Shown: positions 3,805 through 47,189, counted from the stretch's first letter. The stretch is DNA of 64,000 bases from Antedon mediterranea (GCF_964355755.1 NC_092678.1:22771365-22835364), one strand, 5' to 3'. The notes: generated from the letters alone by a model not told the origin. Program-made: numbers and translations.

Positions 3805-3996
3805 TTATGACTGAAGGTAAATAGCAATAACAAGACCTACCCATAAGAAAATATAAATGGTTAAAATTAATAATAAAAAGCGAAATATATCCTCATAAGA
3901 ATAGAAGAAAATAATAGTTAAAATTATTAAATATATTAAAACTATATGCAAAATATTTAAAAGACGAAATAAATGCGATTTAAATATAGGTTTACA
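3805..3996 (-). other. In-frame hydrophobic 2-TM tail lying behind the gene A stop codon
   Basis: After TAA (3997-3999) the same frame continues CKPIFKSHLFRLLNILHIVLIYLIILTIIFFYSYEDIFRFLLLILTIYIFLWVGLVIAIYLQS*, ending identically to gene B (WVGLVIAIYLQS). Confidence 0.8.
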
Positions 3997-6900
3997 TTAG
4001 TTTACATACACCAACTCTTCTATTTCAAATGTTTTGTGATTCCCTTCATTTCTTAAAACAAATTTTGTTATTAATGATGTTTTGTCAATCTTCGTAACGT
4101 CATTTCCATTGATAGATATCATGTCACTTTTGATCATTATATGATTTTTATAACATTCTCTTAGCATTTTATTTACAATAGTACCTGTTAAATTACAATC
4201 ATTCATAGAAAGATGTTTTAAGTTTGGAAATATAATAAATATATTAGCTAGTGTACTTCCGTTGAATGATGATAGGTTGAAGCCATCAAAATTAAGATTA
4301 TCCCATCTTAACCTATAACGACTAGGTGATATTAAAAGATCGTGTAATTGTTTAACTGACATATCACTTGGTATAATGTCTAATTTTTTCTTTACTTCGG
4401 TATCAATATCTGAAAGATCAATTCCTTCTAAGTTGATAAAAATGTCTTTTGGCTTTAGATAGTTTATATCTACTTCATTAAACATGTCACCTATTTGTTT
4501 GCTTGATAATCGAGAATTGGCCACTTTGAAAGTTTCTAAATCTTTGGAAGTGTTTAATATACGACCTAATAGAGATCCATTGATAAACTCCGGATTTTTG
4601 GTGTCGAGTCTAAAACTCTTCAATTTAACAAAAGCTTTACTATGTTCACATTCTTCTAACATTGTGTTAATATGTGAACCACCTATATTACAACTCATAT
4701 AACGTATGTTGAGCTCTCGTAAATTTGGAAAGTTTTGAATTAATTTACACATCTGTGAGTCAATTGTAGTGTTATATTCGAAGCAATCAATAGTCCACCA
4801 AAAATTATGTACTTCCTCACCAAAACGATATTTTTTCCATTCGTCTGAGAGGATTTTAAGAGCTTTATCACCCCATTTATGAAGTAATTGTATCAAAAAG
4901 ATGCTTCGATCTGCAAACTTATACAGATATCCTAATAAGATTTCAACGTGTGCTACTAACCTACATACATTATCAGATGACTCAATGTTTGATTCTTCTA
5001 TGATTGATATAGTTTTAAATATTCCTATTTCCCCCTTGTTTGTAAAATCATCTGCAAACAATTTCATTTGTTGAAATAAGTGCAAATCTTTTTCATATAA
5101 CAACTTAAAAGAATTTTTAAAATTGTCAACATGCATTTTCATTTCTGATGACATATGTTTATCCAATGATGTCAATACTTTTTGTTCGTGCTCTTGATTT
5201 ACATATTTAAAATACTCTAAAAAAGAGTAATAATTTGAGAGCCTATTTACCAACCAGTGTTTTATTAATTTATCTGCATTAGGACCTAGAAAACTAATAG
5301 TGAAAACTCTTGCCATGTGTAAATATTCGCTCGTCCTTAAGTTCTCGCATTCCTCAGATGTTAAAGTATCAATTTTGTTAGACAAGTAAAACCCGGCTAG
5401 CGCTTGTGACCATAACTTATGTGGACATCTGTAAGTCTCTACAGAATCATCCTGAACAGTAGGGTCATCTTTGTAAACAAATCCTATTTTCAACGATAAG
5501 TCAGCCAAAGTTTCATTTCTTACTAGTTCAAGTAATTGTATTTTAGTAAAATGAAGTTTATTTGTTTGTAAACCAATGTAACTTATTTTTCCTAATATTA
5601 AAATTGCATTTTTATAGTCAGTTGAAATGTTGTCAAAGTTGGATATCCGTTTTTGCTCATTACTTCTGTTAATGTACTGATTTAAAATGGAACGGAAGAT
5701 TTCTTTCAAAAAACGTTGAAAATCTTTTGTAATTATTTGTTCGTGTTGCCATATAACACACATTTTAAGTAATAAAAATGGGGATGAAAACAGTTCAAAT
5801 ACATTTTTGTGATCACCACCCCAATTATTTTTCACTGAATCAAGTTTGAATTCGTCAATCAATAACTGGCCCAGATTAGAGTTGAAATTGAAATGTCTAT
5901 TTATATATGGTTTTATGTTTTCTGTAGAGAATCCTTCTACTTTTACATATACATCAAAATGCCTACGTACACTTTCAGTAAAACCCGGTCGTGAAGTCAG
6001 AATAACTGTGCTGTCTTCCAATTCTTCTCTTTTTAGTATCAGTAGAATATCTACCCCAGATGTTAACTCATCTAATCCATCTATCAGAAGAACTAAATCT
6101 TTGTCGTATGTCTCTACAAAAGTTCTTATAATAGTTTCATTTACATAGATACCTGTTTTTTTACGAGATTTCTTCAGCTTAACTGAATCAACAATTAAAT
6201 CTGTGATTGTTTGTCCTTCTTTGATGTCTCTGAGGTTTACAAGAAATAATATTTTACCAGCAAACGTACTATCGTTATTTGTCGCCCAGTTATAAGATAA
6301 ATATTGAAGCAAGGTTGTCTTACCAATTCCACCATTTCCTACCATTAATACTTTACAGGAGTCTTTAGACTTTATAATATCCAATAATTCTTGTAATGAT
6401 GCGTCGACTTTTCTTTTTTCTATATGTAGTACTGGATCTGTGAACATCTGTGAAATGTCATACGGATGATTTTCTCCCCATGTTGGTGGTATTATATTTG
6501 GGTCTTCGAATTTTTTTCTCTGTTCTGCTGTTATGAAGTTTCGAATAAGCTGATCTGAAATGAAGACAATCTATGAAAGTATAAACCGAACAGGCTTTTT
6601 TTTTTGCAAATTTCAACGTTAGGTAGCGGCTATTAAATACTAATTTCATAATAGAAAATTAATAATAAACATTACCTTCTGTTAATTCGCAATCTGAAAA
6701 CCTGTTTGCAAAAACGTGGAATAAGTATGAGAGTATGACAGCTGAGATGACAACAATAAATGCAAAGACCATCGCTAAAGCTAAACAAATGTAAGGTATA
6801 TTTCAGGATTACTGAAGGGCATGCACGGTTTAAGTTCATTTGATGATTACTTTTTTTATTAAGTTATAGAAAAGATGCTTTTGAATACATTGCTTCTTAT

Positions 6901-8675
6901 TTTGATTTGTGGTAGGTCAATGTTACATTGTGAATTTATTTTACGATATTATTTATGCTTACCGATATGTGTACTTGGTTTAGATTTAGATTTCCTGTTA
7001 CCTGTAGGTTAGAAATAAAATTACAATACGTAACAAAATTAAAATCCCAATAAACGTCATTAACCCATGACGTCATTTACCCAAATAACGTCATTTACTC
7101 ATAACCAATACTATTATTTTTGTGTCTGTTGTGACACCATAGATCATTCTCTATGACTCTTTTTTCCAAGATGATGGAGTGGTTATGAAAAATATCGCAA
7201 TTGGATTTATGTTATAATGGTTTGCGCCACCTACGGGTCAATATCATCATTACATTATATGATAATGAATGGTGCATGTAGCTCACGTCACTGTATTGTG
7301 TTTCATACACATCTATCACAGTCTTACAGTATTTGTAGTTACATAATATTTGAATGTTCAATCCTTTTTCCCTATCTTGTTTAGTATTCACTGGATTTGA
7401 TAATGATGTTACTGGATAGGCTAAGCTCCATACCTGTAGAAATTGATATCGGTGTTGGTGTCGATGCTGAAGCCGATGTTTGAATAACTGTAGGCTGATA
7501 GGGTTTTGCTGATAGAAATACAAAAAGAAATCAAAATATAATATAAGTTTAAACTTAACCAACTAACTAAAAACAGGAACATTTTTAGATTATCTGAAAT
7601 TGCTGTACATATGGTTTTATGCTTCTTACAGTTATTTTTATGTTCTAGGCCTAAATTTAAATTTAAAATAAAATTTTAAATAAGTTAAAAAATTTTAACA
7701 ATTGCAACCATACCCACTGCACCCTTCTGTCACTGGCTAGTCTGCTACATACCTGTGGGAACTACCATTGTTGTAGCTGAAGCCGGTATCAAGGTAGGCT
7801 GATAGAATGTTGCTGTAAGTTATATTCATATGCACAAAAGAAATGAAGATATAAGTTTAAACTTCACCAAAATGTTACTAAAATTGAAATATACAGTATT
7901 TCCAGAAACTATAAAGACCCCATGAAAATCTTAAATAATTTAGTTTGAATTAATATCTTTGTTATTTTGAAATTATTATTTTCAAATAAATGCCATGGCC
8001 TTTGATATAGTTTAGTTGTTTAGAGGAAATACGCTCAAGCCATCATTGATTTTGCATGATGTACTACACGGTAAATCCGTGATTAATAATAAATATTATT
8101 ATTTTCTAAAACAAATTTAATGAGCAAATAAAAAAGAATCTCAATCGAGATGTGGTAGGCATACCCAGTAGAATATGTTGTGCTACATTGTTTAGTAGTT
8201 TTGCAAATATTTCAATTTGTTCTCGTGAATCCAAGTTTCCGTTTTTCTCAATGTGATATACAACATCCCAAATGTTGTCGTAGTTGAAGGCACACAGCTT
8301 GTAGAAATCAATAACATTTTGTAAGTCATTTTTGTCTACGTTAATAAGCGTTGTAAACAGTGCTCTGCGGTAGTTGGTTATTATTGTCTCTGATGTGTTA
8401 TTACTGCATTGTACAGTATTCTTGTATTCTGTTGTACAATTTATCGCTGATTCCTGATTAGTTACTTCAGCAATGTCCAACAACAGCCTCACATCAGTTT
8501 TTGAGATAAATCGATTGCGAGTAAGAGTATTAAATAGGCCCATGGCTGACTGATCTAGACCGCCAATAGGTATAATACCACATAGAAGCATTCTTAACTT
8601 CCTAACGTCCACGCCAGCATAGGATTTGCTAAGTTTTTCCAGAAACATTTGGTATTTAACATCATTTTCGTCCAT
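3997..8675 (-). CDS. NLR-like gene A: tandem DED-like - S/T/P linker - TM - NACHT - LRR (~1115 aa, 6 coding exons)
   Basis: Exons 8165-8675, 7753-7812, 7434-7508, 6963-7001, 6676-6780 (LAMVFAFIVVISAVILSYLFHVFA) and 3997-6554. All introns are GT-AG and phase 1, and the total is 3348 nt in frame. Walker A GNGGIGKTT, Walker B LLIDGLDE, sensor ILTSRP, LRR-like FPNLxxLxM repeats. Confidence 0.85.
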
Positions 8676-10571: not shown

Positions 10572-10805
10572 TGATTCGTGGTAAACGTTTGCAGTGATAT
10601 GACGTCATACATCCACTCGTCAAAGAGCGAACGCGCCAAATGCCACGTGAACATGCCAGTCGCCTAGCGCGCACGACCATATCATAAGAATGACGTCATA
10701 GTGTAACAGTCGGCACAGTGGACGTGCAAAAAACTCCCGTATTAAATGAGGAACGTTGAAAAGACAATAAAAATAAGTCTACAATTACTATTACCGTATA
10801 GTATG

Positions 10806-14200: not shown

Positions 14201-14840
14201 ATGTATCCTCCGTTTAGGCCTATATAATCAATATTATAAATTAAAATATAAAAATATTAAGGCCCGATAACGATCGACAATAAATAGATAAACGTTTTTT
14301 CTTACATAAACCAAAATAGATTCAAAAGTTATCCTATACTTCTAGGATAAACAATAGGCCAATATCAATAATAACAATAATATTTTTTTTCTAATTTTAA
14401 AATGTTTATACATACCCTGTATTTAAAATAGATACAACACCACAATAATTAGTAATTAGTTTATTAGAGCAACAGTAAGATTGTCTCCTGATACTTTACT
14501 TTAAAAAATACTACAAATAATAGATAAGATCATTGAATTATCATCGATATTCAGAAGGTAGTATTTAAACAGTGTAGGCGACATTTTGATTCAATATGCG
14601 AAACGCAAATACCGTAATATGTTATTTAAATAAATTTAGCCTAATTAATTATGACTGAAGGTAAATAGCAATAACAAGACCTACCCATAAGCAAATATAA
14701 ATGTTTAAAATTAATAATAGAAAAAGTGAAATGTATCCTCGTAAGAATAGAAGAAAAGTAGAAGATGTTATAGCTATAATTATAATTATTAAAACTTTAT
14801 ATACAATATTTAAAGGACGAAATAAATGCGCTTTAAATAT
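11278..14840. repeat. Recent segmental duplication of ~477-3990; older copy at ~51390-53310
   Basis: Almost base-identical, including the L1 insertion; the third copy lacks the L1. Confidence 0.92.
12255..13873 (+). mobile_element. Second copy of the same L1/Tx1 insertion (carried by segmental duplication)
   Basis: Near-identical to 1452-3022 with the same TSD (12238-12254, 13874-13890). GGA>TGA nonsense change at 13089-13091. Confidence 0.88.
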
Positions 14841-17800
14841 AGGTATACTAGTTTCTATATACCAACTGTAATAGTTCAAATCTTCTATTTCTAATGTTTT
14901 GTGATTCCTTGGCATTACTAAAGTTTTGTGATTCCTTGGCATTACTAAAGTTTTGTGATTCTTTGGCATTACTAACATTTTGTGATTCTCTTTAATTGCT
15001 AAAGTTTTGTGATTCCGTTCAATTGATAAAGTTTTGTGATTCCGTTCAATTGATAAAGTATTGTGATTCTCTTCAGTAGCTAAAATAAATGTTGGGATTA
15101 ATGATGTACTGTCAATCTTCGTATGGTCATTTCCATTGATAGATATTAGGTCACTTTTGATTATTATATTATTTTCATAACATCCACTTAGCATTTCCTT
15201 AACAATAATACCTGTTAAATTACAATTATTCATAGAAATACGTCTTAAGTTTGGAAATATAATAAATATATTAGCTAATGTACTTCCATTGATCGATGAT
15301 AGGTCAATGCCATCCAAAAAAAGACTATCCCATCTAAATCTATAACCACTAGGTGATATTAAAATATCGTGTAATTGTTTAGAAGACATACTATAATTAC
15401 CCCAAGTTTGGCTTTGAGGGCCCTGCCGTGTTTCTAATAAATCGATAATGTTTCCAAGTAATTCGGTATCAATATCTGAAAGAACATTTCTTTGTAATTC
15501 GATAAGATTTTGTTTTGACTTTAAATAGTTTATATCTACTTCATTAAATATGTCGACTATTTGTTTGCTTGATAATTGAGAATTCGCCACATTGAAATAT
15601 GTTAAATCTTTGGAAGTGTTTAATATACGACCTAATAGAGATCCATTGATAAACTCCGGATATTTGGTCTCGAGACTAAAACGCTTTAATTTAACCAAAG
15701 TTTTACTATGTTCACATTCTTCTAACATTGTGTTAATATTTGAACCACCTATATTATAACCCATATAACGTATGTGGAGCCCTTCTAAATTTGGAAAGTT
15801 TTGAATTATTTTGCAAATCCGTGAGTCAATAGTAGTGTTATATACGATGTGATCAATAAACCACAAAAATGTATCTACTTCCTCATCAAAACGGTATCTT
15901 TTCCATTCGTCTAAGAGGATTTTAAAAGCTTTATCACCCCATTTATTAAATAATTGTGTCATATACCAACTGTTTAGATTTTTAGACAGATATCGTAATA
16001 AAATATGAACGTGTGCTACTAACCTACATACATTATCAGATGACTCAATGTTTGATTCTTCTATGATTGATTTCATAGTTATATAATATATTCCTGCTCT
16101 CTCTAAGTTTGTAAAGTCATCTGCAAACAATTTCATTTGTTGGAATAAGTGCAAATCTTTTTCATATAGGGTCTTTAAAGAATTTTTAAAATTGTCAACA
16201 TGTATTTTCATTTCTGGTTGCATATGTTTATCCAATGACTTCACTACATTTTGTTCGTGCTCTTGACTTACATATTTAAAATATTCTAAAAAAGAGTAAT
16301 AATTTGAGAGCCTATTCACCAACCAGTGCTTCATTAATTTGTCTGCATTAGGACCTAGAAAACTGATAATGAAAACTGTTACCATGTGTAAATACTTGTT
16401 CGTCCTTAAGTTCTCGCATTCCTCAGATGTTAAAGTATCCCTTTTTTCCGACAAGTAAAACCCGGCTAGTGCCTCTGACAATAACTTATGTGGACATCTG
16501 TAAGTCTCCACAGAATCATCCTGAACAGTAGGGTCATCTTTGTAAACAAATCCTAATTCCAACGATAAGTCAACTAAAGTTTCATTTTTTACTTGTTCAT
16601 TTAACTTTCTTTTAGTAAAAAGAAGTAAGTTGTTATGTAAGCCAATGTAACTAATTTGCCCTAATATTACAATTGCATTTTTGTAGTCAGTCAAAATGTG
16701 GTCAAATTCTGGTATTGCTGTAGTAGTAGACTTGTTACTCCTGTTAATGTTCTGTTTTAAAATCAGACAAAATATTTCTTTAAAAAAATGCTGAAAATCT
16801 TTGGGAATTGTTTGTTTGTGTTGCCACACAGTACACATTTTAAGTAACAAAAACGGGGATGAAAGTAGTTGAAATATTTCCTTATGATCACCACCCCAGT
16901 ATATAGATTTAGAATCAAGTTTAAATTGATCTATTAATAACTGACCCAGTTTATAATTTCCAATATAATCAAAATATTTGTTTATATATGGCTTTATATT
17001 TTCTGCACTGAATCCCTTTATATTAACAAGTACATCAAAATGTTTTTCTACGCTATCCACTGTAGGACCAGGTCGTGAAGTAACAATGACCGTGCAATCT
17101 TCTAGTTCTTCACGTTTTATTATCATTGGAATATCTAGCCCAGAATTTAACTCATCATATCCATCCAGCAGAACTACACATTCTCGGTCATGTTTCTCTA
17201 TAAAAGTTTTTATAGATGTATTACTTACACGGGGATCTGTTTTTGCATTCACCTTAACCCTATTTATGATCATATCAGTGATGGTTTGACCTGCCTTGAT
17301 GTCTCTTACGTTTACAAGAAATAATATTTTACCAGCAAACGTATCATCGGAATCTATCGCCCAGTTATAAGATATGAATTGAAGCAAGGTTGTCTTACCA
17401 ATTCCTCCATTTCCTACCATTAATACTTTAGGTGAGTCTTTTGACTTTATAATACCCAATAATTCTTGCAAAGATGTGGGACTTTTTATTTTTTCTTCCT
17501 TTGTAGTAGTTTTTAAAACTGGATCTGTAAACATCTTGGAAATATCAACATAGTGTCCAAAATGTTCGGTCCACGTCGGTGGTCTCAATGTTGGGTCTTT
17601 TAATTTATTTGTCTGTGTTGCTGTTAAGTAGTTTCGAATAATATCATCTGAAATCAAGAAAGTTTGTAATTCATCTCGTGAAAAGCAAATATTACCTAAT
17701 AGGTTTGACCATACCATCAATATTTTAATATAGTACTCCTTTACATTTATTATCCAGCAAGTTCATGACCTTCTTACGCTCATTTGCCTCGTTTGAAGCC

Positions 17801-20800
17801 ATTGTAACAATTCTGATTTTTGACTCTCTTTTTTGTTCACACTACCACTGCGCATAATGTTTATACACTGCATAGCTAGAAAATCATCAAATTGTATTAT
17901 TATATACATACCATTATCCCCTTCTGTTAATTTGTGGTTTGTAGCTAGAATGACGGCAATGACCAGTACTAAAGTTGCTATAATGAAATACACAAAAGTA
18001 ATTTAGTTACAATTGCAGACATGAGACCGTTGCAAACTAAAAGACGCAGTTCTAGTCATTAATATAAGTATGTAATACGCTTCAAAATAAATAAATTATG
18101 TTTGATATTGTAAATTTATTGAAAATAAACATTAGTTGAGTTGTTACTGCTTGTACTTACCGAGTAATGGTATAGCCATAGATTCCAAGTTATGTTGATT
18201 TGTCACTGCATGTAGGCCTATAACTAAAATAAAAAATAAATGTATAATAGAAACTATTGTATATCATTAGGCGACTCTACTTCAACAACTGTGCAATAGC
18301 AACTGTTATATAAAAAGGATACATCTGATTAGAATAAATCATTATATAAAAAGAGAATAACAAAATGTACGTATTACGTTTCAAAGAAAGGTATTTTTTT
18401 TGTTAACACGCCTGCTCGTGTTCTTGCAATTTGATTGGTCAATTAGGCATCACGTGTCATTTGGAAGTAGCCCTATCTCATAGAAAAGTGATATTTAATT
18501 GCGATAATGTACGGCTCTATTCACGTTCAGCTTTCTGTAAACATTTTGATAATGTTTGTTGACTGATCGTGTTTATCTGTTCTACTCTGCTTCTAAAGTT
18601 GGAACACTGCCTTTTTTAATGGCCTAGCTTCACGCTAGAATTCGTCAATGATTTAAGATGGATAACTTGAATAAAAGTAGGTGTTTTATAAAACAAATAA
18701 CTGATGTTTTGTATTCGTTATATGGGAAGAATATTTCATGTCCACCTCGTTAAATAGTCAATTTAGTCATGAAATATTCTACCATTCAACTCATAAACAT
18801 TAATTATTTGTATACGTCTATACATTGAATATACAATAACTATTTGTTTTTTAAAAACTTTATTGTTGTTTTCAATACAGCCACATTGTTTTGTGATTCA
18901 TAAACAATTCAGTTAACTCTTGTACTTACCAAAGTCTACAAAAGAAAAAAAAACTCTTGTTAAATGTTAAAAATGATGTCACATCATCCATAACATTAAC
19001 AATGACATTTGAAATATAATATTTTTATTTTAAAAAGTTTTTAAACAGCTGTTTGTAATCATTAGGAGTAGACAATTATAAGATTGTTGTATTACATGTA
19101 AAAAAACCCAACTCAAATCAATCTGTAACGAAAATATCACATCTATAATAAATTCTTTAAAAAAAAATATAGGCCTATTTAGGCCTACACCTAAATATTC
19201 AGAATTTTTAGGTTTCATACAATGTATTTTATATAAATCTATTGAGATAAAGTATATTCTTTACGAGGATAAAACAATATTATATTAAGATTGTGTTATC
19301 ATTACTGTTTAACAATGTAAAAAACCAAACTAAAATATCGCGGACCGGAAAATTATGATTTTGAAATGTATCAAATTCAATAACCAAAAAATAGCAATAC
19401 GGCTTTACCACGTTGAAACACCGGTTCTCGTCAGATCACCGAAGTTAAGCAACGTTGGGCCTGCTTAGAGCTTGGATGGGAGACCATCTCTGGGAATATT
19501 GGGTGCTGTATATGGAGCTGGGGTCCCGTTAGGCATTTGAAATCAGCACTGCTGACTCTTATGGCAGCTCCTGCATCTAGTATCTGCCTCAGACTATTGA
19601 CTTATGCCTTTCCTCTGGTCAAGGTGGGCACTGGACGAGAGAAGCCCTTGATCAATGTTAGGACCAATCAAGGTGCTTTAAACTGTCCTGGCTTTGTTTG
19701 TATCAAACCTGTTAGTGGCGGTAATTATCTGTTGGTTTCGATTGAATAAAATAAAAAATAAAATAAAAGTGTGTTTATACTTTATTGCGATTTATTCCTC
19801 AGTGGAGAAAATAAAATATTAGGATTGCTGTATCGTTACATTTTAAGAGGCTTAAATGTAAAAAAAAATATTTAAAAAAATAAATAAAAGGTCATGGACG
19901 TGAGAATTATAAGTTTGAAATGCATGTATGACATTAATAAACAATATTAATAAACATATGTTGAGACACAAAATGAGTCTAATGTTGTTATTCATAATGC
20001 TTACCGTTATATATCCTGTTATCCGATCGAAGTGACACTGTAGGTTAGAAATTAAAAAAATTCAAAATCTCAAAAATACATTTACCACAACCACTAATTG
20101 TATACTGTGTTGATTCTTAATTTATTGTGAATAATTTGTTATTTTGAACAACAAAGTGAAACACTCTTAAAGATGTATTGTCCCCCAAAAAATGAAAAAT
20201 GAAGGTTAATTAAATCAGACTTTGAATATGTTATTTTTTAGTTTTAATAAAGTTAATCACTTCAGTAGAAAAACAATGAAACAAAATAATGTTTTCACTT
20301 ATAAAATGACAAAATAAATATGTCATAGATATTATTGTTGTTTAGTTAATTATAATGGAATGAATTTATTTCCATCGTTTGAATTACTTACTGTTATTTA
20401 CATCGACAGAATTGATTAAATGGTTGAATCCATTTATTCTTAACATCTTAATGAATTCCTTCATGTTTTCTTCCGAGAGAATCATGTTTCGTTCAAAATC
20501 CATGATCAAACTCCAGCTATCTTTATATGATTTTAGCATTGTTTCTCTGTAAATATGACTTAACCTTTTTTTTTCACTCTTTGTCATGTTTTGCCCAAGT
20601 CGTATTACACTCTGTCTGTATTCACTAAATGCCAAAGCTCTCTCTTCTCTGCATGGGCGTAGGCATACCATTTTTAAATCTGTTTGTTCATATATTTCCT
20701 CCCAAACGCCATCCTGTTGTGTTATAGTTATGGTATCGTATATAAGAGTGGGATTGTTGTGATTCAGTCCTTTATGTGTATACAACAAGTTTAGCAATTC

Positions 20801-21716
20801 CATCATTGACGAAGCGTTCTCTAGTCTACCTTTGTCAGGCACCAAGTCTTCGTACAACACTTTAATCATCTTGATTGGGCAAAATTGGTCAAACCAATTT
20901 GCCACAGTAATTTTCAACTTTATGAATTGATTTTCTGTTAAGGCTGTTAAAGTAAAAATACATGTCATTGTGTTCTTTTGTTTCTAATATTTGTATTATG
21001 ATAATGTGAGATATTTAAGGTCAAAGGTGACTTTTATGTAACATTTGATGTCTCATAACTCCTCAACCCCTGGGTTTAAAAGGATAAATGAAGTGTCATT
21101 AGGAGTCACAAAAATAAATACAACTTTTGCAACTTTTTAATAATTCCATTGGTCAGATATACAAGGTCAAGGGTCAATGACCTTTATTTAGTATATAATG
21201 GCTCATAACTCTTTAACAACTGCACACAAAAGGACGAAAGTGTTCCTGAATCGGTTTTACTGACCACATATATTGTTTGTCTATTTGTGACTTTTACAGC
21301 CAGAGATATTACAGGCAGTCATATAGGATTTTGGCCGCCATTTTGGAAGATCGAAAGCTGATTGGGTGGCTCCCAGGCAAAACTCAATTAGTAGGACTAA
21401 GAGAAGCCCCATGCCAAATTTGGTGCCACTCGCCTTAATCACTATTAATGTCCATTTTCACAAATGGAATTAACATCTAATTGATTTAAATGTAAATTAT
21501 TGAAAAATAATAATGAAACTGCCTTTCCTTTCAATATATAGGTCTATAAATAAAGTATGGTGTAATCGTCCGTAATTTCATGCTTATTCTTTACTCCATG
21601 ATAAATCTAAGGAAAGTTAAACCAGTGGCGTTTTACACTGATTATTTCCTAACAGTACCGGGATCTCGTTTTTTTACTTATGTTTAGTATATTTTACCTG
21701 TTTCTGTTCCTTCCAT
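14649..21716 (-). CDS. NLR-like gene B: DED-like - microexons - TM - NACHT - LRR - 9-aa repeats - 2-TM tail (~1245 aa)
   Basis: Exons 21698-21716 (MEGTET), 20392-20943, 20005-20037, 18930-18935 (6 nt), 18161-18223, 17912-17977 and 14649-17647, all phase 1. The TM MAIPLLATLVLVIAVILAT spans two exons. Motifs GNGGIGKTT and VLLDGYDE; C-terminus has two hydrophobic stretches. Confidence 0.8.
19394..19768 (+). mobile_element. 5S rRNA-derived SINE (SINE3-type)
   Basis: 19394-19512 is a diverged 5S rRNA sequence (taccacgttgaaacaccggttctcgtc.gatcaccgaagttaagcaacg...ttggatggg...gggtgctgta), followed by a ~230-bp non-5S body and an (aataa)n tail. It lies in a gene B intron. Confidence 0.85.
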
Positions 21717-24805: not shown

Positions 24806-27800
24806 TTATTCGTTCAACTTGGTGGTTTTAAGAATTGTGTGACGAACAACCATGATATTTTTGAATATTTTCGATGGAAAAACAGGCGTATCGTACATAG
24901 TTATCGTTATATCAACATCATGTGGGCCTTCTGTCGGTAATTTACCGCCGACTGAAAGCTTCCCATTTTCTAGCCGCATGACTTGCCGCTGTATCGTGCT
25001 GTACTGTAAGAGCGCCTGCAGGTTCTCAATTGAATCCAATGAGTTAAAATCAGTAAATAAAACGAGTTCTAATCTCATAATAAATGTCCTGCCAGATGCT
25101 GGACTGTTATCTATTTTTAATGTTTGGTTATTGTGTTCATTTTCAAAAACAAATAAAGGAATTATTGCGTTGTCATAAAGTTTAACATTTGGTTTTAAAA
25201 CTGTTAAATTGTCTTTATTTATTGCCCCCATTTTATAACATTCACTTAGCATGTCTTTAACTATTTTACCTTTTAAATTACAACCATTCATAGAAAAACG
25301 TTGTAAGTTTGGAAATATTATAAATATTTTAGCTAGTGTACTTCCGTTTATTGATGATAGGTCGACGCCTTCCAAATTAAGAGAAAACTTTTCAAATCTG
25401 TAACGCCTTGGTGAGCTTAAAAGATCATGTAATTGATTTGATGATAAATTATGCAGACCCCAATTTAATTCAAATCCCAAAAATGAATTTATAATGTTCG
25501 CAAGTAAATCAATACTAATTTTTGAAAGATCATTTAGCTCTAAATTCATGAAAATATCTTTTGATTTTAAATAGTTTAAATCGATTTCATTTAGCATATC
25601 GACTGTTTGGATACTTGACATATTACAATCTTGCAAATTAAAGAATTGCAAATCTTTAGAAGTATTTATTATGTGACCTAATACAGTACCATTTAAACAG
25701 GTAAGATTGTTACCCCTGAGAGCAAATACCTTCAATTTAGGAAATGTTTCACTGAGTGTACATTCATTTAACATTAATTCAATTCGCTGACAATCCAGTA
25801 AATTGCTTATGGTGAGAATTTCTAGGTTACGAAAGTTTTTTAAAAAATTGCAAAGCTGTGAGCCGTTTATTATAAACCTGGGTTCAAAGCTTGCATGAAA
25901 TGCAAAGGAACGTATTTCCTCACCTAAAGAGTATTTCTTCCATTCTTCTGAAAGAATTGCAATAGCCTTATCCCCCCATTTCTCAATTAGAGTTATCAAA
26001 TATTTATCACGCTTCATTGGTATGGCTTGAAGGGATGACTCGTCTTGATGTAATTGCAATATAATCGAAATGTGAGCTACAAATCTGCACACATTTTCAA
26101 ATGTATGTTTATTCGATTCTTTTACCAACGACGTGATACCAGCTAATAATTCCCTCTTCTTTTGTGTTTTACACACATTTGACATCCACTTCAGTAGTTG
26201 TAAAAAGTGCAAATTGTTATCATCAATAAACTGTTTAAAGGAATTATTTAACCTTTCAAAATGTATTTTCATTTCTGGAGAGGTATGTTTATCCAATGAT
26301 TTCAAAACCTTTTTTTCGTCTGATTCATTCACATATTTAAAATATTTTGAAAATGAGTAATAATTTGACGCCTTATTCTCCAACCAGTGTTTCATTAGTT
26401 TGTCGGCATTGGGACCTAAGAAACTAATAGTAAAAACTCTTACTATGTGTAAATACTCGTTCGTTCTTATTTTCTCGCATTCTTTGGAATCAAAAGTTTC
26501 AATTTTGTCAGACAAGTAATACCCGGCTAGAGCTTCTGAAAATAACCTATCTGGAAAACTGTAAGTCTCTAAAGTACCAAATTGAACAGTAGTAGAGTCA
26601 TCTTTGTAAACAAATCCTAAATTTAGCGAGAAGTCAACTAAAGCTTCATCTTGTTCTATTTCGTTTAATTCTGTTTTCGTAAAACGAAGTACATTGTTTT
26701 GCAAACAAATGTACTGTAACTAATGTGTCCTAATATTAGAATTGAATTCTTATACTTAGTCGGAATCTTGTCAAAGTATGCTATGGTATCTTCTGTTTTA
26801 TTTATGCTGATGTGCTGATTTAAAATTGAAAGAAACATGTGTTTAAAAAAAATCAGAATATTTTGGGGGATCTTTTGCTCGCTTTCCCACATAATACACA
26901 TTTTACGTAATAAAAATGGAGATGTAAGAAGTTCAAATATTTCTTTATGTTCACCACCCCAAGTATTTGTATCAAGTGAATCAAGTTTAAGTATGGTAAT
27001 CAATGTCTGACCCAGTTCAGGCTTTCCAATTATTTCGAAATATCTTTTTATATATGACTTTATGTTGGTTTTATCAAATCCTTTCTTCACTTTTACAAAT
27101 ACGTCACAATGTCTGTGTAAACGCTAAGTAAATGAAACTGGTCGTGAAGTCAGAATAACTGTACTGTCTTCCAGTTCTTCACGTTTTAATATCATTGAAA
27201 TATCTACCCCAAATTTTAATTCATCTAATCCGTCTATTAGAAAAACTAATTCTCTGTTGTGTTTCTTTATATAATGTTGTATACTTGCCTGCTTACTTAC
27301 ACATAGATCTAACTTCAACTGAACTCTATCAACGATTATGTCTGTGATGGTTTGACCTGGTTCGATGTCTCTGGCGTTTACAAGAAATAATATTTTACCG
27401 TCAAACGTAGCATCAGAATCAGATGCCCAGTTATAAGATATGAATTGAACCAAGGTTGTCTTACCAATTCCCCTATTTCCAGTAATCAATATTTTAGGTG
27501 AGTCTTTGGACTTTATAATAGACAATAATTCTTTTAATGATGTGCCCATTCTTTTTCCCCTCTCTATGATATAAAGCTCTGGTTCAGTAAACATCTCAGA
27601 AATATTGTAATATGTATCTCCTCTGTACATTGGTGGTCTTAGGCATGTGTCGTTCAATTCCCTTTTCTGCTCCGCTAATATCAAATTTCGAATAGTTTCT
27701 GAAATAAAAAAAAGCAAATAAATTGTGCCTATATAAACTATTAGAAACATATAAAATAAGAAACAAATACTCAAAATAAGACGCAAATTATTGTAATGTT

Positions 27801-29229
27801 TTTAAACAGTCAGTGTTATTCTATCGTAAATTAAATTCGTGGTTATTAATGTGCTAAACATAATTACCTGTGTCCATGGAGTGCTGGTAATCATCATCAT
27901 TATAATTACTAAATGCTGTTACTTCATGGCCTGAAACCTTCGCAAAAACACCCAAAATTACAACAATGAATGCAGTGGCCATTAAAACTAAAGAAATAAT
28001 ATAACAGTATTTTTTTTAAACATTTACAAGTAAAACATCGATGGACAACCATATAATGTAATTATGCTTAAACAAAAAAGATGACATCCCACATAGCAAA
28101 GAAACGAGGTGAATCACTATAATGATCGTTCGCCTTTCAAAGAAATGTATACTAGACGTTGAAGAGCCCGCAAAGTGTAAACAAAAAAATATAGGGCCTA
28201 AAACATTTTCGAAAATTATTATTTTTGCCACGCGAATTGAACTATGTAAACGAATTACGCCTTCTCTGTTGGGAATACATAACTTATGAAAGCTTCAGAC
28301 ATAATAATTGCATATAAAATTACGTTTTTCAGTAATTTATTCAAGTCCATATTATATCAGACACTTCAAATTCAGAACGAGTTAGAAGACGGTATTGTTG
28401 ATAAGAAAGAGGTCAATATTTATTTAAAGAGGTTGGAACCATAAAATATTGGAAAAGTATATATAGAATAGGCCTAAATTATTAGAAAATCTTTTATATT
28501 GCCTTAGTGTTTGAATTTATTGTCGAATTTATTATACCCCAGGTTACTTTGAGATTAGATTTAGCTTAGTCAATGGAAGTATGTTATGCTCCAATGTCAA
28601 ATTTATTTCTAAGATATGTTTTCAAATATGTTTAAATTACACAAGTTTAAATATATATTATTTATATCTTTAATTAATTAATTCGTTTGGCTGTTTAAAT
28701 GATTTATGTTTTGAAGATTGAATGGAAAATGAAGAAGAATTCTAAAAATGTGATATAGGCAGGTAGTGAGATATATCAATGTGTTGTTCGAGTGTGTTTT
28801 AGATAAAGTAGAGAAAAATGGATAATATAGTATTTATTAGTTCTGTTTTTGAAATTTTAAAAGGTTAATGTTAAAGTCACCCAATTAAATTACAATCAAT
28901 ATGTACTATTTAAAGTGGTTCATCTTTTTTAAAGAAACATTTTTTAATCCGGTGGGTTGTAGCCTAAATAATACCTAATTATTCAGCATTTTAGTTAGCC
29001 AAAACTTATGATAATTCGTTAAGAAAAGCGTGTTAGAATTAATCTCGCGATTACGATTACACTACATTCCGGCAGTTTTTGTGCATTAGTTGTTTGTGAT
29101 GTTCTCGGTCACTGACTAATTTCTTGGAAAAATGACACTATTTGGGCTACCTACCTGTAAAAAATGGTTTCGGTGCTCTTCTCCGTTCCGCTGCTGGTTT
29201 TCCTATTGGTTCCGCTATTGGTCGCGGTG
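24806..29229 (-). pseudogene. NLR-like locus C (linker - TM - NACHT - LRR), disrupted
   Basis: Exons 29155-29229 (PRPIAEPIGKPAAERRRAPKPFFT), 27868-27987 (LMATAFIVVILGVFA) and 24806-27698. In-frame TAG at 27124-27126 and a frameshift near 26705-26715. Walker A GNRGIGKTT. No recognisable DED exon; C-terminus unrelated to the paralogs. Confidence 0.8.
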
Positions 29230-30808: not shown

Positions 30809-33800
30809 CTATATATTTACAGGTAGATGTACATTGAATCTTTTAACAGAATATACATAAATAAAGAAAATAATACAACAACAAATACAATAATTTATAT
30901 CGAAATAATAAAGAAGAAAGTAGATCAGAGCGAAGAAGAATAAAATGGAACAAAGGGTTATTATAATAGATATAATATAAAAATGCACTGCTTCGTATAA
31001 AGTTATCTTATATCTAAGACTCCGATAAAGTATATATTTGTAAAAATGCCATTCCTCTATGTCTAATATTACCTTATTGTTTGTTCTACTAAAAACTAAG
31101 AATGGAATCATATAATTATTATTAACATTTTTATTATTGTCATTATTTGTCAATATTAAATTGTTTTTTATTATTAATTTATTTCTATAACACTCGTTTA
31201 GAAAGGCATTGACAATATCACCTGATAGTCTACAATCATTCATAGAAAGACGTATTAAGTTTGGAAATGTAATAAATATGTTAGCTAGTGTACTTCCGTT
31301 GATTGATGATAGGTCAATACCATCCAACGTAAGAATACTCCATCTAAATTTGTACTGCCAAGGTGATATTAAAAGATCGTGTAACTGTTTTGCTGATAAA
31401 TGATAATGGTACCATTCCAATCCATTTGCTTTCAAATAATTTGGTACTTTTAATGCATTGATAACTTTTGCTAGTGAATAACTATCAACATTTGAAAGAT
31501 CGTTCGAAATTAAATTGATGAAATTTGGTTTTGATTTTAAATAGTTTGTATCTACTTCCCTCAACATATCAACTATTTGGTTGCTTGATAAATGACACCA
31601 ACTCAAATCAAAATTTTTTAAATCTTTAGAAGTATTTAATATGTGACCTAATAGACTCCCATTGATACAAGGAAGATTTTGACTCGAGAGCAAATATGTT
31701 TTCAACTTGACAAATTGTTTAAGTTTGTATCGTTCTAACATCTCGTTAATACGTTTACACTGACTTTGTGAATATAATCGTAGAGCGACTTTTTCTAGGT
31801 TTGGACAGTTTTCAATTAATTTGAACAAATGTGGACCAGAAAGGTTACTAAAAATATATTCAAAAAACAAAAAATACCGTATTTCCTCATCATAATCGTA
31901 TTTCTGCCATTCGTTAGAAAGAATTTCAAGAGCTTTATCACCCCATTTATAAAGTAATGTTGTTAAACATTTATTATTGACAAAAACGGCATATTCATAT
32001 TTGTCATTGTATCTTAAAAACATTGTCATGTGAGCTACTAGCCTACACACATTTTCAAACGACGCTGTAGTTGAACTTTGAATGATTAATTCCACATTTG
32101 ATATTACTGTATTACTGTCTTTTATAAGTTCATCTGAAAACAATGTCAGAAGTTTGATCCAGTGTAAATTGTCACTAAAAATAAATGTTTTAAAGGAATT
32201 CCGTAAATTCTCAACATGTGGTTTCATTTTAGGAGATATTTGATTGTCCAGTGATGTCGTTACTTTTTCTTCATGCTCTTTACTTACATATTTAAAATAT
32301 TTTGCAAATGAGTAATAATTTGACGCCCTATTCACCAACCAGTGTCTCATTAATTTGTCAGCATGAGGTCCTAGAAAACTGATAGTGAAAACTCTTGTCA
32401 TGTGTAAATACGGGTTTGTTCTTATTTCCTCGCATTCCTCAGAATCTAAACTAACAATTTCATTAGCCAAATAGTAACCAGCTAGAGCTTCTGACAATAA
32501 CTTATATGGCCATCGGTAGGTCTCCTTAAAATTATCCTGAACAATTGGTTCTTCTTTGTAAACAAATCCTAATTCTAACGATAATTTAACTAAAGTTTCA
32601 TTTTTTCCAACATTTTTTAATTCTGTGTCAGTAAAATATAGCAAATTATTCTGTAACCTATTGTAACTAATGTTTCCTAATATCAAAATTGCATTTTTAT
32701 ACTCAATCGGAATGTCTTCAAAGTCTATCACTTTTGTAGTACAGCTATCACCTCTGTTTTTGTATTGATTTAAAAAGGAAAGGAAAATTTCTTTAAACAA
32801 ATTTGAAAAATTATCTGGGCTTACTTGATGGTGTTGCCACATTGTACACACTTTAAGTAATAAAAATGGGGATGAAAATAGTTGTGGAAACATGTATGTG
32901 TGATCAAAATCAACTTTATAGTTTTCAATTAATGACTGACCCAATGTATAATTGTTAATTGATTTGAAATATCTGTTTATATAGTAAAGTATATTTTCTC
33001 CAGTGAATCCCTCCACCTTAACATGAACATCGTAATACTTTTGTAAACTTTCAGTGAAACCTGGGCGCGATGTGAGGACAAGTGTGCTTTCTTCCAATTC
33101 TTCGCGTTTTAATATCATTGGAATATCAACTCCAGAGTTTAACTCATCTAATCCATCTATTAAAATAACTAATTCTTTTTCATGTTCTTCTATAAAAGTT
33201 TTTATAGTAGTTTTATTTATATCAATACCTGTTTTTTTACGAAAGTTCTTTAACTCAACTTTATCAACGATTATATCTGTGATGGTTTGATTTTCCTCGA
33301 TATCTCTGACGTTTACAAGAAATAATATTTTACCAGCAAACGTTGCATCGTTGTCAGTCGCCCAGTTATAAGCTATATATTGAAGTAATGTTGTCTTGCC
33401 AATTCCTCCGTTTCCTGTCATCAATACTTTACATGATTTTGTAGAATTTATAATAGCCAATAGTTCTTGTAATGATGTATATTTTTCTTTTTTCTCTCGT
33501 TTTACAGTAGTGTATAATACTGGATCGGTAAACATCTGTGAAATATCATAAGTTGTAAACCCTTCTCTCCATGTCGGTGGCCTTATGCTTGGGTCTTTGA
33601 ATTTTGTTTTCTGGTCTGCCGTTAAATATTTTTTAATAATCTCATCTGAAATCAATTAGGAATTATTCAATGAACAAAAAAACTACATTTATTGAAAACT
33701 CACATGAAATAAAATAACAGTACAGTCCAAATAAAACCTAAAAGACGTAGGAAGGTAACATTTTAGAATCTGAAACTGGCAAATAGCAGAATCTCTGTGT

Positions 33801-35559
33801 GTTACGCCAGTCATAAAAATATAAGTACTAACCTGTTGATTCATAGAAGTACAAAGTACCTAAGATGACGACAGTGATGGCAATTAATGTCATTGGTAAA
33901 ACTATATATATATAAAAGATTAAACTGTTACTCAATTAAAATAACATAACATAACATGTATATAAATAATACTGTCAAATTATTGAAACATTATTGAAAT
34001 AATGCTTATTTTTTTCGGAACATGAATGTTCCGTATGTTTAGTTGTATGAAAAATGTCTCATGCGTATTTTTTTTAAAGCCACGGCAATTAAAAAAAATA
34101 CCATGGCAACCTTAAAAATGAAACACCACGGCAAATTATAAATGAAACATCACGGCAAAGTATACAAAATGCTATGGCAGAAGTGAGTTACAACGGCGGA
34201 AGTGAAACCCTTGGAATCTTCGATTTTTTCTGAGGCAAGTAATTATTTCCTCGAACAATTGATGTAAATAAATATATGGCTATAATGAGCATAGACTTTT
34301 CCTTAGGGGGCTTAGACGTACGTTCGCAATGACCTTGAAGGCAATCAAAACAGAATACCGAGTAAATGATCAAACAATCATGCTAGTTTCACACCAGAAC
34401 ACACACTAACTTACACCAACAAAATGTTATCTTGCTCTTTAGTCACGTGTGTTTACCTGCGGATCAATACGATCGTTTTGCTCATTGGTAGCATGCATGC
34501 TCCGGAATTTAAGCTTAATTACCTACCTGTAACTATTGATACTACGTGTTCCATTTGTTCCTCTGCATTCTCTTCTGCTTCCTCATTTTGTTCCTCTGCA
34601 TTCGCTTCTGCTTCCCCATTTTGTTCCTCTGCATTCGCTTCTGCTTCCCCATGTTGTTCCTCTGCATTCGCTTCTGGTTCTTCTATTGGTTTAACAAGTT
34701 TAAACTTAACAAAATGTGTAACTACAAATCCCATATGTTAATGGCCCTTTTCCGGTAAAATACAAGCCTACATACAAACTTCAAAGATTGAAATAGTAAA
34801 TCAAATCCCTTTCGAAGTAAATTCATTAATTAAAACATGTCAATTAAGAACAAATTTCTGGAAAATACTAACATTAATGGAAATTATAATAATTGGTAAT
34901 TAACCAATACTTATTAACATACCTCCAATGTATGTTTGAGGTCTAAGTATTCTTAACATCTCAATGAATTTCATTATTTAGAACAAGGATCGTGATATCA
35001 TTATAATGATAACGAGATACATACAGTACATACCAATAAGTAGCATTAGTGTTTCTTTTCCTTTTTGTCTGAGACAGTCCGCAAACTTTTTTATTTTGTC
35101 TGGTTCATCTGCAAGATGTTTGTCAATCTCAAGATGAAGCACTGCATCCCAAATATTTCTGTAGTTATGTTGGTTTATTTCGTAGAAAGCAGTAACACAT
35201 AGCAATTCACCTTGATCATCAACTTGGCTCATGGCTTTATACAGTTGCTTACGATAAGAGGACAACTTTGGTCCATCCAGTGTATTCTGAACCCCATTGT
35301 TATTCATGTACCTTCTAACATGGTCTTTAGCCTTCTTCACTCCAAATAGTTCCGTAATCTCAAATAGTAAGTTAATATTAGTAGGTGTGATGTAAGCTTT
35401 TTCTTCGAGTATATTGAATAAATTGTGTCCGATAAAAGCTGAATTTCTAATATCACCCACATCTAGGTGATCAAACAAGATGCATTTTAACCGAAGGTAA
35501 TTGTTCCCGTTAAAACATGTACTTAGGTTTGCTTTCAAGGTCTTAAAACCTTCTTCCAT
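30809..35559 (-). CDS. NLR-like gene D: DED-like - acidic repeat linker - TM - NACHT - LRR - 2-TM tail (~1195 aa)
   Basis: Exons 35034-35559, 34527-34682 (EANAEEQ repeats; acceptor choice uncertain), 33833-33901 (LPMTLIAITVVILGTLYFY) and 30809-33645. Phase 1 throughout, 3588 nt in frame. Motifs GNGGIGKTT, ILIDGLDE, VLTSRP. Confidence 0.82.
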
Positions 35560-45700: not shown

Positions 45701-46070
45701 AATCAATCACATTCCTTAAGTCATCTTTGTCTACGTTAGTAAGCGCTGTAAACAGTGCTCTGCGGTAGTTAGTTATTATTGTCTCTGATGTGTTATTACT
45801 GCATTGAACAGTATTCTTGTATTCTGTTATACAATTTATCGCTGATTTCTGATTAGTTACTTCAGCAATGTCCAACAACAGCCTCACATCAGTTTTTGAG
45901 ATAAATCGGTTACGAGTAAGTGTATTAAATAGGCCCATGGCTAATTGATCTAGATATCCAATAGGTATAACACCATATAGAAGCATTCTTAACTTCCGAA
46001 CTTCAGTGCCAGCATAGAGTTTGCTAAGTTTTTCCAGAAACATGCGGTATTTAAGAACATTTTCGTTCAT
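42739..46070 (-). CDS. Chimeric locus E: DED-like - basic linker - TM - second DED-like module, no NACHT (~414 aa; may be a pseudogene)
   Basis: Exons 45560-46070 (close paralog of the gene A first coding exon), 44979-45023, 44581-44601, 44257-44316, 43976-44065 (VLALVIAIVIAIPNIFSCFVL) and 42739-43256 (paralog of the gene D DED exon). GT-AG, phase 1, 1245 nt in frame. Confidence 0.6.
43761..43871 (+). mobile_element. Minimal HINE-related element
   Basis: tagtcgcgtgcaacgcgact hairpin, cactatgtcggtcgg core and cacgcgact subTIR are shared with the larger HINE family. Confidence 0.6.
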
Positions 46071-47189
46071 TTTTAATCTGAAAACAAAAATCTATTACTA
46101 GTAAAAAACTCACAATATTAACACAATTTGGAACAATTTTTATAAATTTTAGCCAGCTAAGGACTGGAAAAATCGTTCAAACGTAAGCAATTAATGTGTA
46201 GGCCTAACTTTCTAACTATGCATAGTCCCAAATGTTCAACACACCCTGACCTGAAGAATCTTTAGTTTAAACTACATTAGGCCTACTAAATCAATATCAA
46301 CATTACAGTTACTACCAACAATATCACTGACCTATTTCAATGTATTGGAAATAACAGCCTTATAAATTAAAATTAGATTTTCTTCAACAGTATTTCTTTC
46401 TTTTTTTGATCATCTCCATTTTTTCTGATTGAAGTTTGATCAGATGCCTCGTAAACTGATCGAAACGTTTAGTGCAAGAACTATATAATACTATATGTAC
46501 TGATTTATACTTTACCAGTTGTTGTTTCTTTCTGATGAACAGTAACGGTAGGCGTATTCAAAATCGACAAGACAAGTTCCAAAATGGTTGCTGTACACTG
46601 AACCGTAACATCTCAGGGTTGACTTTATCGTTTTTTCATTTTAATATCTACTTGTTTTTTTGTCTAGTGTAGGCCTATGTCTACTGTTAAATCCAATTCA
46701 GAAGAGTTTGCAACAAAACTGATTAATTGAACCTGAACCTGTGTAAATCCTATTTTAATGCACTTGTGCTAAATAAATTGCCTATGAATATACTGTCGAC
46801 AACAAGTATTTGGAAGTATTATATGTAGAGTATTGTATATTATTCAGTAATTATTCTATTTCACTGAAGCGCGTCTACATGGGTCGTAGTCTATGAGTGG
46901 ACGTTAACGTGCCAGTGATCTTACTGCGTAACCTCTAGTATTCCATCGCTGGGTCGGTGGACGGGCTTATTAGGTCAGGCTAAGTTTGTAGCTTGGCTTA
47001 GCCTAGATCCTTAATTTTCTGAACAAATGTTGTCGTCCTAGTGATAAAACTCAGGCCAAAACCTGTAGTATTTTGTATATGTAGTATATTCTTGTGAGCT
47101 TTATTCAATCAATTATATTATTATTTTTAGTCATAATAATGTGTAGTATTATACTGGCAATTAAAAAAAAATTATATTTGTAGCTATAT

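Follow-up and report, generated by a model that had tools for sequence, protein, structure and literature searches.

The 64,000 nt stretch of the genome of the feather star Antedon mediterranea considered here (GCF_964355755.1 NC_092678.1:22771365-22835364, hereafter the window) carries a tandem cluster of genes for NLRs (receptors with a nucleotide-binding domain and repeats rich in leucine), all of them in the minus strand. Five large reading frames encode a NACHT domain followed by leucine-rich repeats (LRRs) and are named A, B, C, D and F; five shorter minus-strand open reading frames (ORFs) with death-effector-like sequence are also found. The gene plan reads as a death-effector domain (DED)-like exon, a basic mini-exon, a transmembrane (TM) exon and a single large NACHT-LRR exon. 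Textbooks place NLRs in the cytosol as sensors, and nucleotide from that compartment is generally considered necessary for their NACHT ATPase. In this family a span of 20-27 residues lies between DED and NACHT-LRR, so that one or the other has to lie outside the cytosol, provided that the segment does span the membrane, and the orientation of these proteins in the membrane is the subject of this work. The DNA is AT-rich (~25-40% GC), and the nearest database relatives are RefSeq proteins of A. mediterranea itself (55-57% identity) and of a second feather star, Anneissia japonica. Soluble NLR controls are RefSeq proteins of these two crinoids; individual RefSeq models are given by P numbers where they need to be told apart.

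In gene A every junction is in phase 1, with AG acceptors and GT donors, and the joined exons form an open frame of 1070 aa. Its first TM segment, TM1 (IALAMVFAFIVVISAVILSYLFHVFA, 26 aa), is followed by NRFSDCELTE. The TM exon is 77.5% identical to residues 36-75 of the A. mediterranea protein P0001, to which the NACHT-LRR exon is 55% identical across 99% of the ORF. One contig of sequencing run X8, which has the same species label as the window and whose RNA status is a guess, joins position 6963 to 6780 with GT..AG borders in the minus strand, i.e., the mini-exon to the TM exon. Another A. mediterranea model, P0007, shows NRKSKVKQH directly before its TM segment, and the sequences ERRRAPKP, CKKP and NKR of other window units are likewise encoded in short exons (AG acceptors, G/GTA donors) directly upstream of TM exons. 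All mini-exons (39, 75 and 60 nt) and TM exons (105, 66, 120, 69, 90 and 87 nt) are symmetric, phase 1-1, the exon class by which EGF and FN3 modules are usually shuffled. Conservation of TM exon, phase and flanks extends from the window genes to A. mediterranea and A. japonica, the open frames being 1000-1200 aa long.

Pfam NACHT (PF05729) is matched by all five window units with 50-70 bits against a cut-off of 26.7 (E-value 1.9e-19 in gene A). The Walker A (GxxGxGKT/S) and Walker B (hhhhDGxDE) motifs, which the original prediction from the sequence had called intact, are so in gene A (GNGGIGKTT and LLIDGLDEL) and the same motifs are readable in the B, C, D and F ORFs. Both are conserved in the family along with TSRP and, mostly, PHK. 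As a separate observation, the histidine of the winged-helix domain (WHD) motif P-H-K/R-L that follows NACHT is kept in genes A and B and in most relatives and is replaced in genes D (WPYKLL) and C (FPDRLF), a replacement possibly relevant to nucleotide sensing. The LRR part of gene A scores 17.9 bits in Pfam against a cut-off of 27, and the homologous regions of P0005 (LRR_4, 40.3 bits) and P0098 (33.2 bits) are both above that cut-off. For the N-terminal part, the window exons match DED (PF01335) with 19.7-31.1 bits against a cut-off of 35.9 (23 bits in gene A) and one exon has no match; P0002, to which the gene A exon is 59% identical, passes with 37.8 bits. An hhalign comparison with P0140, a strong DED protein, gave an E-value of 0.0026 and a probability of 11%, and a PDB profile search came no nearer to caspase-8 DEDs than E 0.1. 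AlphaFold, given an alignment of 4 sequences, models the gene A DED-like exon as all-helical with low confidence (pLDDT 52.5), and Foldseek returned no match to this model at E <= 0.001. No Ig family was found in Pfam scans of the window ORFs, P0001-P0005, P0007 and P0069.

A Kyte-Doolittle (KD) hydropathy scan detected a strong span upstream of the NACHT/LRR part in six of 61 proteins (P0001-P0005 and P0007). Further spans appeared in P0069 and in P0098 among 138 other representatives, the latter with a K-rich N-terminus, the TM segment and then NLR-type LRRs only, and in P0200 among 47 other crinoid proteins. The TM1 core of 20-27 residues in this group is uniformly hydrophobic, of ordinary span length and not amphipathic. 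In a quick maximum-likelihood tree of the NACHT-helical region (71 rows, gene C omitted, proteins that lack a Walker A match or cover <450 residues of this region dropped), all 11 TM-bearing NACHT rows (seven RefSeq proteins plus genes A, B, D and F) lie together on the same side of one branch with a Shimodaira-Hasegawa-like approximate likelihood ratio (SH-aLRT) of 96, nested among soluble DED-NACHT-LRR proteins. A single TM-bearing clade is most simply explained by one gain of the TM exon before the Antedon-Anneissia split, in what would otherwise be a soluble NLR family.

Charges around TM1, counted like the hydropathy with simple scripts of our own over 15 residues on each side, are asymmetric. 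Gene A has 4 K/R and 0 D/E before the span and 2 K/R and 4 D/E after it; across the nine TM-bearing proteins K+R on the N side equals or exceeds that on the C side in every case (totals 33 vs 16), with a summed net charge of +24 against -4. The basic flank before and the acidic flank after the TM that had been read from the window are thus borne out, with the same bias in 9/9. Equally, the DED exons had been said to lack a signal peptide, and no N-terminal hydrophobic core is present in the first 40 residues of the DED-bearing proteins. Instead, a DED part of 170-400 aa precedes TM1, and a folded N-terminal domain favours the N-in orientation.

Cysteine content changes at the same boundary. 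In the NACHT-helical domain region it is 1.15% for TM-clade proteins (n=11, range 0.83-1.65), against 2.66% for those of the sister soluble clade (n=25, range 2.15-3.47) and 2.27% for the remaining soluble NLRs (n=33); the ranges of the TM clade and of the soluble groups meet at 1.65% only. The LRR part follows the same trend (2.02%, n=7, vs 3.48% in soluble proteins, n=35), whereas the DED part is not reduced (1.37%, n=5, vs 1.09%, n=35; p 0.68). Of 11 alignment columns with at least 50% cysteine in the sister clade, three are kept in the TM clade. A loss of free cysteines limited to the part beyond TM1 would be expected if that part had moved into an oxidising compartment.

Additional modules are found between TM and NACHT in some members. 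The A. japonica protein XP_033105221.1 (P0069, locus LOC117107621) reads ...GNKRR, TM, two EGF domains with six cysteines each and then NACHT, the EGF match (PF00008) covering two stretches with an E-value of 1.3e-12 and 48.1 bits against a cut-off of 21.5. Its NACHT lies inside the TM clade, sister to the TM-bearing P0005. The predicted order TM-EGF-NACHT is the one expected of an insertion into the phase-1 intron of this family and not of a merger with a neighbouring type I gene. EGF domains are not known to occur outside the extracellular or luminal parts of proteins. In A. mediterranea, P0003 and P0004 carry a probable FN3 domain in the same place: the Pfam fn3 match is sub-threshold (20.9 bits, cut-off 25), a PDB profile search gives the NCAM1 FN3 at E 2e-4 over the full length, and the model of the region has 7-8 strands with a pLDDT of 50.4. 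With this model (pLDDT ~50), all rows listed by Foldseek are FN3 or FN3 tandems except the insulin receptor ectodomain, with TM-scores of ~0.5; the model counts here only alongside the sequence matches. FN3 was considered as a compartment marker and rejected, intracellular titin domains being among the closest solved matches.

Glycosylation sequons had been put forward as luminal evidence, and this part of the argument fails. The count of 11 N-x-S/T sequons in the gene A NACHT-LRR exon is correct and compares with 8.2 +/- 2.6 expected when the composition is shuffled 5000 times (z 1.1, p 0.18). Of six RefSeq proteins with a TM, just two lie above their shuffles, P0003 (z 3.9) and P0004 (z 2.2), and 15 soluble crinoid NLRs have a similar density. 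Pooled observed/expected (O/E) ratios in the NACHT-helical domain region are 1.15 in the TM clade (11 rows), 1.01 in the sister soluble clade (25) and 0.94 in other soluble NLRs (33), and in the LRR part sequons are fewer in the TM clade (O/E 1.34, 1.84 per 100 aa) than in soluble proteins (1.65, 2.28 per 100 aa). Density is not above background in either kind of comparison that had been proposed, with composition shuffles and with soluble NLRs, the latter here being RefSeq proteins. The conservation of two NG(S/T) and one NTS, claimed for all five NACHT exons, can be read in A, B, C and D; F shows only the second NGS because it is frameshifted, and outside the window one of the three (SSINGSTLA) is kept in the nearest A. 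mediterranea protein. NLS/NLT and I-(N/D/S)-G-(S/T) are part of the consensus of the LRRs, and soluble crinoid NLRs have them too. Two sequons are specific to the Antedon-type subclade, among them NET at residue 346 of the gene A exon (8/11 TM rows vs 3% of 58 soluble), and these may be taken as a weak hint of topology.

The family also has, unnoticed in the original prediction, a conserved C-terminal hydrophobic tail with one or two predicted spans, in frame in genes B and D. In A. mediterranea P0001 and P0200 two spans are joined by RGY(I), as in these two genes, the full RGYI motif being common to gene B, P0001 and P0200; in A. japonica P0005 a single span ends in RRVII, 5 residues from the C-terminus, and shares with gene B a YYSxYIE before the tail. 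The basic RRVII end is consistent with DED and tail both being cytosolic. Given these spans, most family members are predicted to be two- or three-pass proteins rather than simple type II ones. The type II label of the original prediction is accordingly right as to the missing signal peptide and the more positive N-flank and does not hold as to the single span. Gene A alone, by its stop codon, would be a plain single-pass type II protein: an in-frame TAA (3999-3997), likewise overlooked at first, stands directly before the tail, 63 codons short of the ancestral stop, and looks recent because the tail DNA is 95.7% identical to that of gene B. Over 3′ flank and tail (476-4030 in A vs 11279-14881 in B) the two genes are 95.7-99.4% identical and their NACHT-LRR bodies 82.4% only, a contrast that suggests either a recent conversion or duplication of the flank or a sensor part diverging faster.

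The remaining units are in various states (Table 1): gene D looks intact, gene A tail-less through its stop codon, gene B short in its TM exon, and C and F decayed, gene C being a likely pseudogene. Gene B has in addition a tandem expansion of a 9-residue unit (RNHKTL.IE / PRNHKTLVM) just before the tail (14700-14950, minus strand), absent from gene A. Run X8 shows no joint at any predicted exon border of gene D (30600-35700). Upstream of gene D, one exon each of the DED-like, basic mini- and TM types (45558-46076 and 43976-44316) are followed by a further DED-like exon (42805-43230) and then by a long interspersed nuclear element (LINE) insertion (37457-40946). These exons, with no NACHT exon of their own behind them, could be what is left of a gene, or could serve gene D as alternative 5′ exons to its NACHT exon.

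Table 1. Exons, motifs and open frames of the NACHT-LRR gene cluster in the window (positions counted from its first nucleotide).
Feature	Position	Strand	Remarks
Gene A, DED-like first coding exon (MDENDV...AQHILL, phase 1 end)	8165..8675	minus	ORF; 59% identity to P0002 residues 3-175
Gene A, basic mini-exon, 39 nt, phase 1-1, encodes NRKSKSKPSTHI	6963..7001	minus	acceptor CTACAG, donor GTAAGC
Gene A, TM exon, 105 nt, phase 1-1, encodes LAMVFAFIVVISAVILSYLFHVFANRFSDCELTE	6676..6780	minus	acceptor TTTAG, donor GTAATG
Gene A, NACHT + helical-domain + LRR exon	3997..6554	minus	start after TTTCAG, end TAA 3999-3997
Gene A, Walker A GNGGIGKTT	6313..6339	minus	read from sequence
Gene A, Walker B LLIDGLDEL	6064..6090	minus	read from sequence
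Gene A, ancestral two-span C-terminal tail, in frame behind TAA	3808..3996	minus	95.7% DNA identity to gene B tail and 3′ flank
Gene B, TM exon, 66 nt, phase 1-1, 12 hydrophobic residues only	17912..17977	minus	
Gene B, NACHT-LRR exon, C-terminal tail intact (two predicted spans, RGY between)	14649..17647	minus	
Second-type DED-like exon upstream of gene B	20387..20947	minus	Pfam DED 31.1 bits (below cut-off); 61.6% identity to P0002 residues 203-390
Gene C, basic mini-exon (...ERRRAPKPFFT)	29155..29229	minus	
Gene C, TM exon	27868..27987	minus	
Gene C, NACHT-LRR across three reading frames; C-terminus different, non-hydrophobic	24806..27698	minus	
Gene D, DED-like exon	35044..35547	minus	tblastn with P0002 and P0003; no Pfam match at E <= 0.01
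Gene D, TM exon (LPMTLIAITVVILGTLYFY)	33833..33901	minus	
Gene D, NACHT-LRR exon, hydrophobic tail intact	30809..33645	minus	
Orphan mini-exon 44316-44257 (...CKKPIAICT) and TM exon 44065-43976	43976..44316	minus	no NACHT exon directly downstream
DED-like exon	45558..46076	minus	89.9% DNA identity to gene A DED-like exon
Further DED-like exon	42805-43230	minus	
Gene F, TM exon	56019..56105	minus	
Gene F, NACHT-LRR, frameshift-split (53924-55917 and 53123-53737), tail decayed	53123..55917	minus	
NACHT-LRR open frames	A 3997-6570; B 14649-17762; D 30809-33655	minus	ORF scan
NACHT-LRR open frames, broken	C 24806-27801 (three frames); F 53123-55960 (two frames)	minus	ORF scan

Between the NLR genes, plus-strand ORFs of non-LTR (long terminal repeat) retrotransposons are found at 37457-40946, 47331-49900, 1491-2519 and 12294-13091, with an Exo_endo_phos endonuclease domain (E 6e-15), RVT_1 (E 4e-36 and 2e-33) and zf-RVT tails. 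Long simple repeats also read as open frames at 56453-56926 (minus strand) and 10272-10597 (plus strand), their units being (HRHK)n and a ~25-residue unit, RETILLRQSSRDHSPPIIARPFSANH; these are probably microsatellite or minisatellite DNA rather than genes.

Concerning orientation, we put at about 55% the probability that the DED part is cytosolic and the NACHT-LRR part luminal or outside the cell. This arrangement is favoured because of the charge bias, the missing signal peptide together with an early DED, the EGF and probable FN3 modules and the cysteine loss. It had been proposed for the window already, and it remains the best reading now that the charge bias has held and the sequon argument has not; what the original prediction observed is confirmed as to exon structure, charges, signal-peptide absence and sequon count, not as to sequon enrichment, and its interpretation is supported in part. 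Under such an arrangement TM1 would serve as a signal-anchor, the N-terminal domain having by then been made and folded in the cytosol, the NACHT-LRR part of ~900 residues would be translocated across the membrane, and its far end would be held there by the C-terminal span or spans. A ligand bound by the LRRs, be it in a phagosome, in an endosome or outside the cell, might then lead to NACHT oligomerisation, which would cluster the cytosolic death-effector domains and recruit a FADD- or caspase-8-like partner; a Toll-like or death receptor would work by the same logic, here put together from parts of an NLR. The more encompassing proposal is that of a feather-star NLR clade turned inside-out, with a STAND (signal transduction ATPase with numerous domains) ATPase and LRRs in the secretory or endosomal lumen or on the surface, tethered at both ends and signalling to cytosolic DEDs, which later gained EGF and FN3 modules by phase 1-1 shuffling and shed free cysteines; to this longer chain of events we would give even odds.

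A number of observations weigh against this orientation. The conserved Walker A/B, TSRP and PHK motifs imply that the NACHT-LRR module still appears to need nucleotide, of which little is available outside cells. The acidic stretch TEDE that follows TM1 belongs to the first part of the NACHT exon and soluble paralogs are acidic there too, so that the charge contrast, obtained with simple scripts in the first place, is partly inherited and not topogenic. The TM clade being a single lineage, its contrasts in charge, cysteine and sequons amount to essentially one event in evolution, and the independence implied by the Mann-Whitney p-values is overstated. For EGF, the argument comes from a single automated RefSeq model, and no second protein with EGF and NACHT is present among the 120 listed of 277 near-length matches or among 23 shorter matches. 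With titin among its relatives, FN3 does not fix the compartment. The DED assignment of the window exons, made by sequence profile, stays below the Pfam cut-off. Sequon enrichment as evidence of glycosylation was rejected, being above neither shuffles nor soluble paralogs. At the C-terminal end, P0200, B and D have 2-3 K/R on the LRR side of the span and 2, 1 and 0 K/R, respectively, in the loop, and the acidic loop (DIN) and basic tail of gene D fit the opposite orientation; charge counts at these spans do not discriminate between orientations and were rejected as evidence.

Many of these points would be at home in a membrane-anchored NLR that faces the cytosol, the alternative that survives best and one we regard as unlikely. 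The NACHT-LRR, and functionally the DED too, would then stay in the cytosol and the hydrophobic segments would tether the protein to an organelle or to the plasma membrane, be it by tail-anchor insertion, by a TM1 that is non-spanning or forms a hairpin, or in DED-less isoforms (P0001) with the short N-terminus flipped outward. All structurally studied NLRs are, as is generally known, cytosolic and need ATP or dATP, and the intact Walker A/B, the lack of sequon enrichment, the C-terminal spans with a basic LRR-side flank and the acidic loop and basic tail of gene D would agree with such a location. So would the P0005 span, tail-anchor-like in lying 5 residues from the end, the isoform X1 of P0001, which has 37 residues only before TM1, and a sea cucumber precedent, AjNLRC4, described in the available part of its report (PMC8699970) as a membrane NLR with an intracellular NACHT. 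However, 20-27 very hydrophobic residues are too short for a helical hairpin; DED and NACHT would end on opposite sides, and no partner is known for a DED in the lumen. In 9/9 proteins the charge bias is contrary to this reading, the six-cysteine EGF modules of P0069 would be out of place in the cytosol, and a cysteine loss limited to the post-TM part would have no explanation. Moreover, TM1 emerges ~900 residues ahead of the tail, and co-translational targeting should pre-empt a tail-anchor mechanism.

It is improbable, in our view, that there is no functional topology at all, i.e., that the window copies are decaying duplicates and the signals are annotation or composition artefacts of an AT-rich genome. 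Decay is certainly seen, in the frameshifts of C and F, the premature stop of A, the 12 hydrophobic residues of the B TM exon and the orphaned TM exon; AT-rich DNA gives many F, I, L, Y and N codons, and no listed sequencing run containing the stretch is recorded as RNA. Artefacts of this kind would not be expected to conserve TM exon, phase and flanks with A. mediterranea and A. japonica in open frames of 1000-1200 aa, nor to share YYSxYIE (gene B, P0005) and RGYI (gene B, P0001, P0200); gene D and the RefSeq orthologs are intact, and the splice from mini-exon to TM exon is backed by the X8 contig.

Plant CC-NLR resistosomes, fungal HeLo domains and the TM effectors of bacterial NACHT systems offer models for conditional membrane insertion. 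By analogy with these, the hydrophobic helices at both ends of the sensor module might belong to a protein that is soluble at rest and permeabilises or damages a membrane after NACHT oligomerisation, TM effector domains on STAND NTPases, frequent in bacteria, being mentioned in the discussion of PMC13133943, but we deem this very improbable, since the segments are of ordinary span length and non-amphipathic and would probably be captured by the signal recognition particle (SRP) during synthesis, the DED is already effector-recruiting, and EGF modules and charge bias would go unexplained.

Membrane NLRs have already been published for sea cucumber, including one with a claimed extracellular NACHT, and the crinoid architecture is a variant of this theme. 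AjNLR-new from Apostichopus japonicus (J Biol Chem 2026) is presented, in the part of the article available, as a membrane receptor with an extracellular NACHT and an intracellular Ig, on the evidence of TMHMM, antibody staining and the binding of recombinant fragments (PMC13133943). The orientation suggested for the window, called very unusual for a STAND ATPase when first proposed, needs to be qualified to that extent; the phrase "extracellular NACHT" occurs in this paper only among the limited collection of literature searched. AjNLR-new is like the crinoid family in being an echinoderm NACHT protein with TM segments. It differs in placing the Ig between two N-terminal TM segments and the NACHT at the C-terminus, with no DED or LRR in the portion of the text at hand (PMC13133943); for the crinoid family the evidence is that of sequence alone, and homology is considered for the NACHT domain only. 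AjNLRC4 from the same species (PLoS Pathog 2021) is likewise membrane-bound and NLR-like with two TM segments, and, unlike the crinoid proteins, has an extracellular Ig and an intracellular NACHT, without DED or LRR as far as the accessible text describes it, an orientation opposite to the one we favour (PMC8699970). Having no Ig and having DED, LRR and C-terminal spans, the crinoid proteins stand outside the AjNLRC4/AjNLR-new group.

Further afield, putative membrane-bound NLRs of anthozoans were, according to the available part of their paper, first noted by Yuen, Bayes and Degnan in 2014 (PMC3879445). They resemble the crinoid proteins in being membrane-bound by sequence prediction and, in that same portion of the source, carry three to four TM segments at their very N-terminus, within a gap-junction-like cysteine-rich region, with no death-fold domain before the TM and a NACHT assumed to be cytosolic (PMC3879445). 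The soluble crinoid DED-NACHT-LRR paralogs (A. japonica P0006, P0008 and P0076, for instance), the sister clade, are directly related by descent; they share 30-45% identity in the NACHT-helical-LRR module and the same DED-type N-terminus and differ in having neither TM exon nor hydrophobic tail and ~2x the cysteine after the linker. With Toll-like and death receptors the likeness is one of functional analogy only, an LRR ectodomain or luminal sensor clustering a cytosolic death-fold or TIR domain across one span; those receptors are unrelated in sequence and of type I, have signal peptides, bear either cysteine-capped LRRs or TNFR repeats, and lack a STAND ATPase. A description of a DED-TM-NACHT-LRR architecture in crinoid NLRs with TM segments was not found in the limited collection of literature searched. 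Outside echinoderms, the Branchiostoma lanceolatum protein XP_066275097.1 (P0114) has four N-terminal hydrophobic segments in a KAP-family P-loop NTPase domain, with NACHT and LRRs after it, and is another membrane-associated NACHT architecture.

Should the cytosol-facing alternative be right, these genes would still represent a new membrane-tethered DED-NLR architecture, and the location of the DED would be the puzzle. If, on the other hand, the NACHT-LRR part is luminal or extracellular as we favour, a STAND switch would be able to operate in the lumen or outside the cell, and the division between NLRs and Toll-like receptors would be blurred. The feather-star family would then be a natural case of a cytosolic domain relocated, with the loss of cysteines and the gain of EGF and FN3 as the traces of its move, and would provide comparative support, or a test case, for the sole published claim of an extracellular NACHT, that from sea cucumber.

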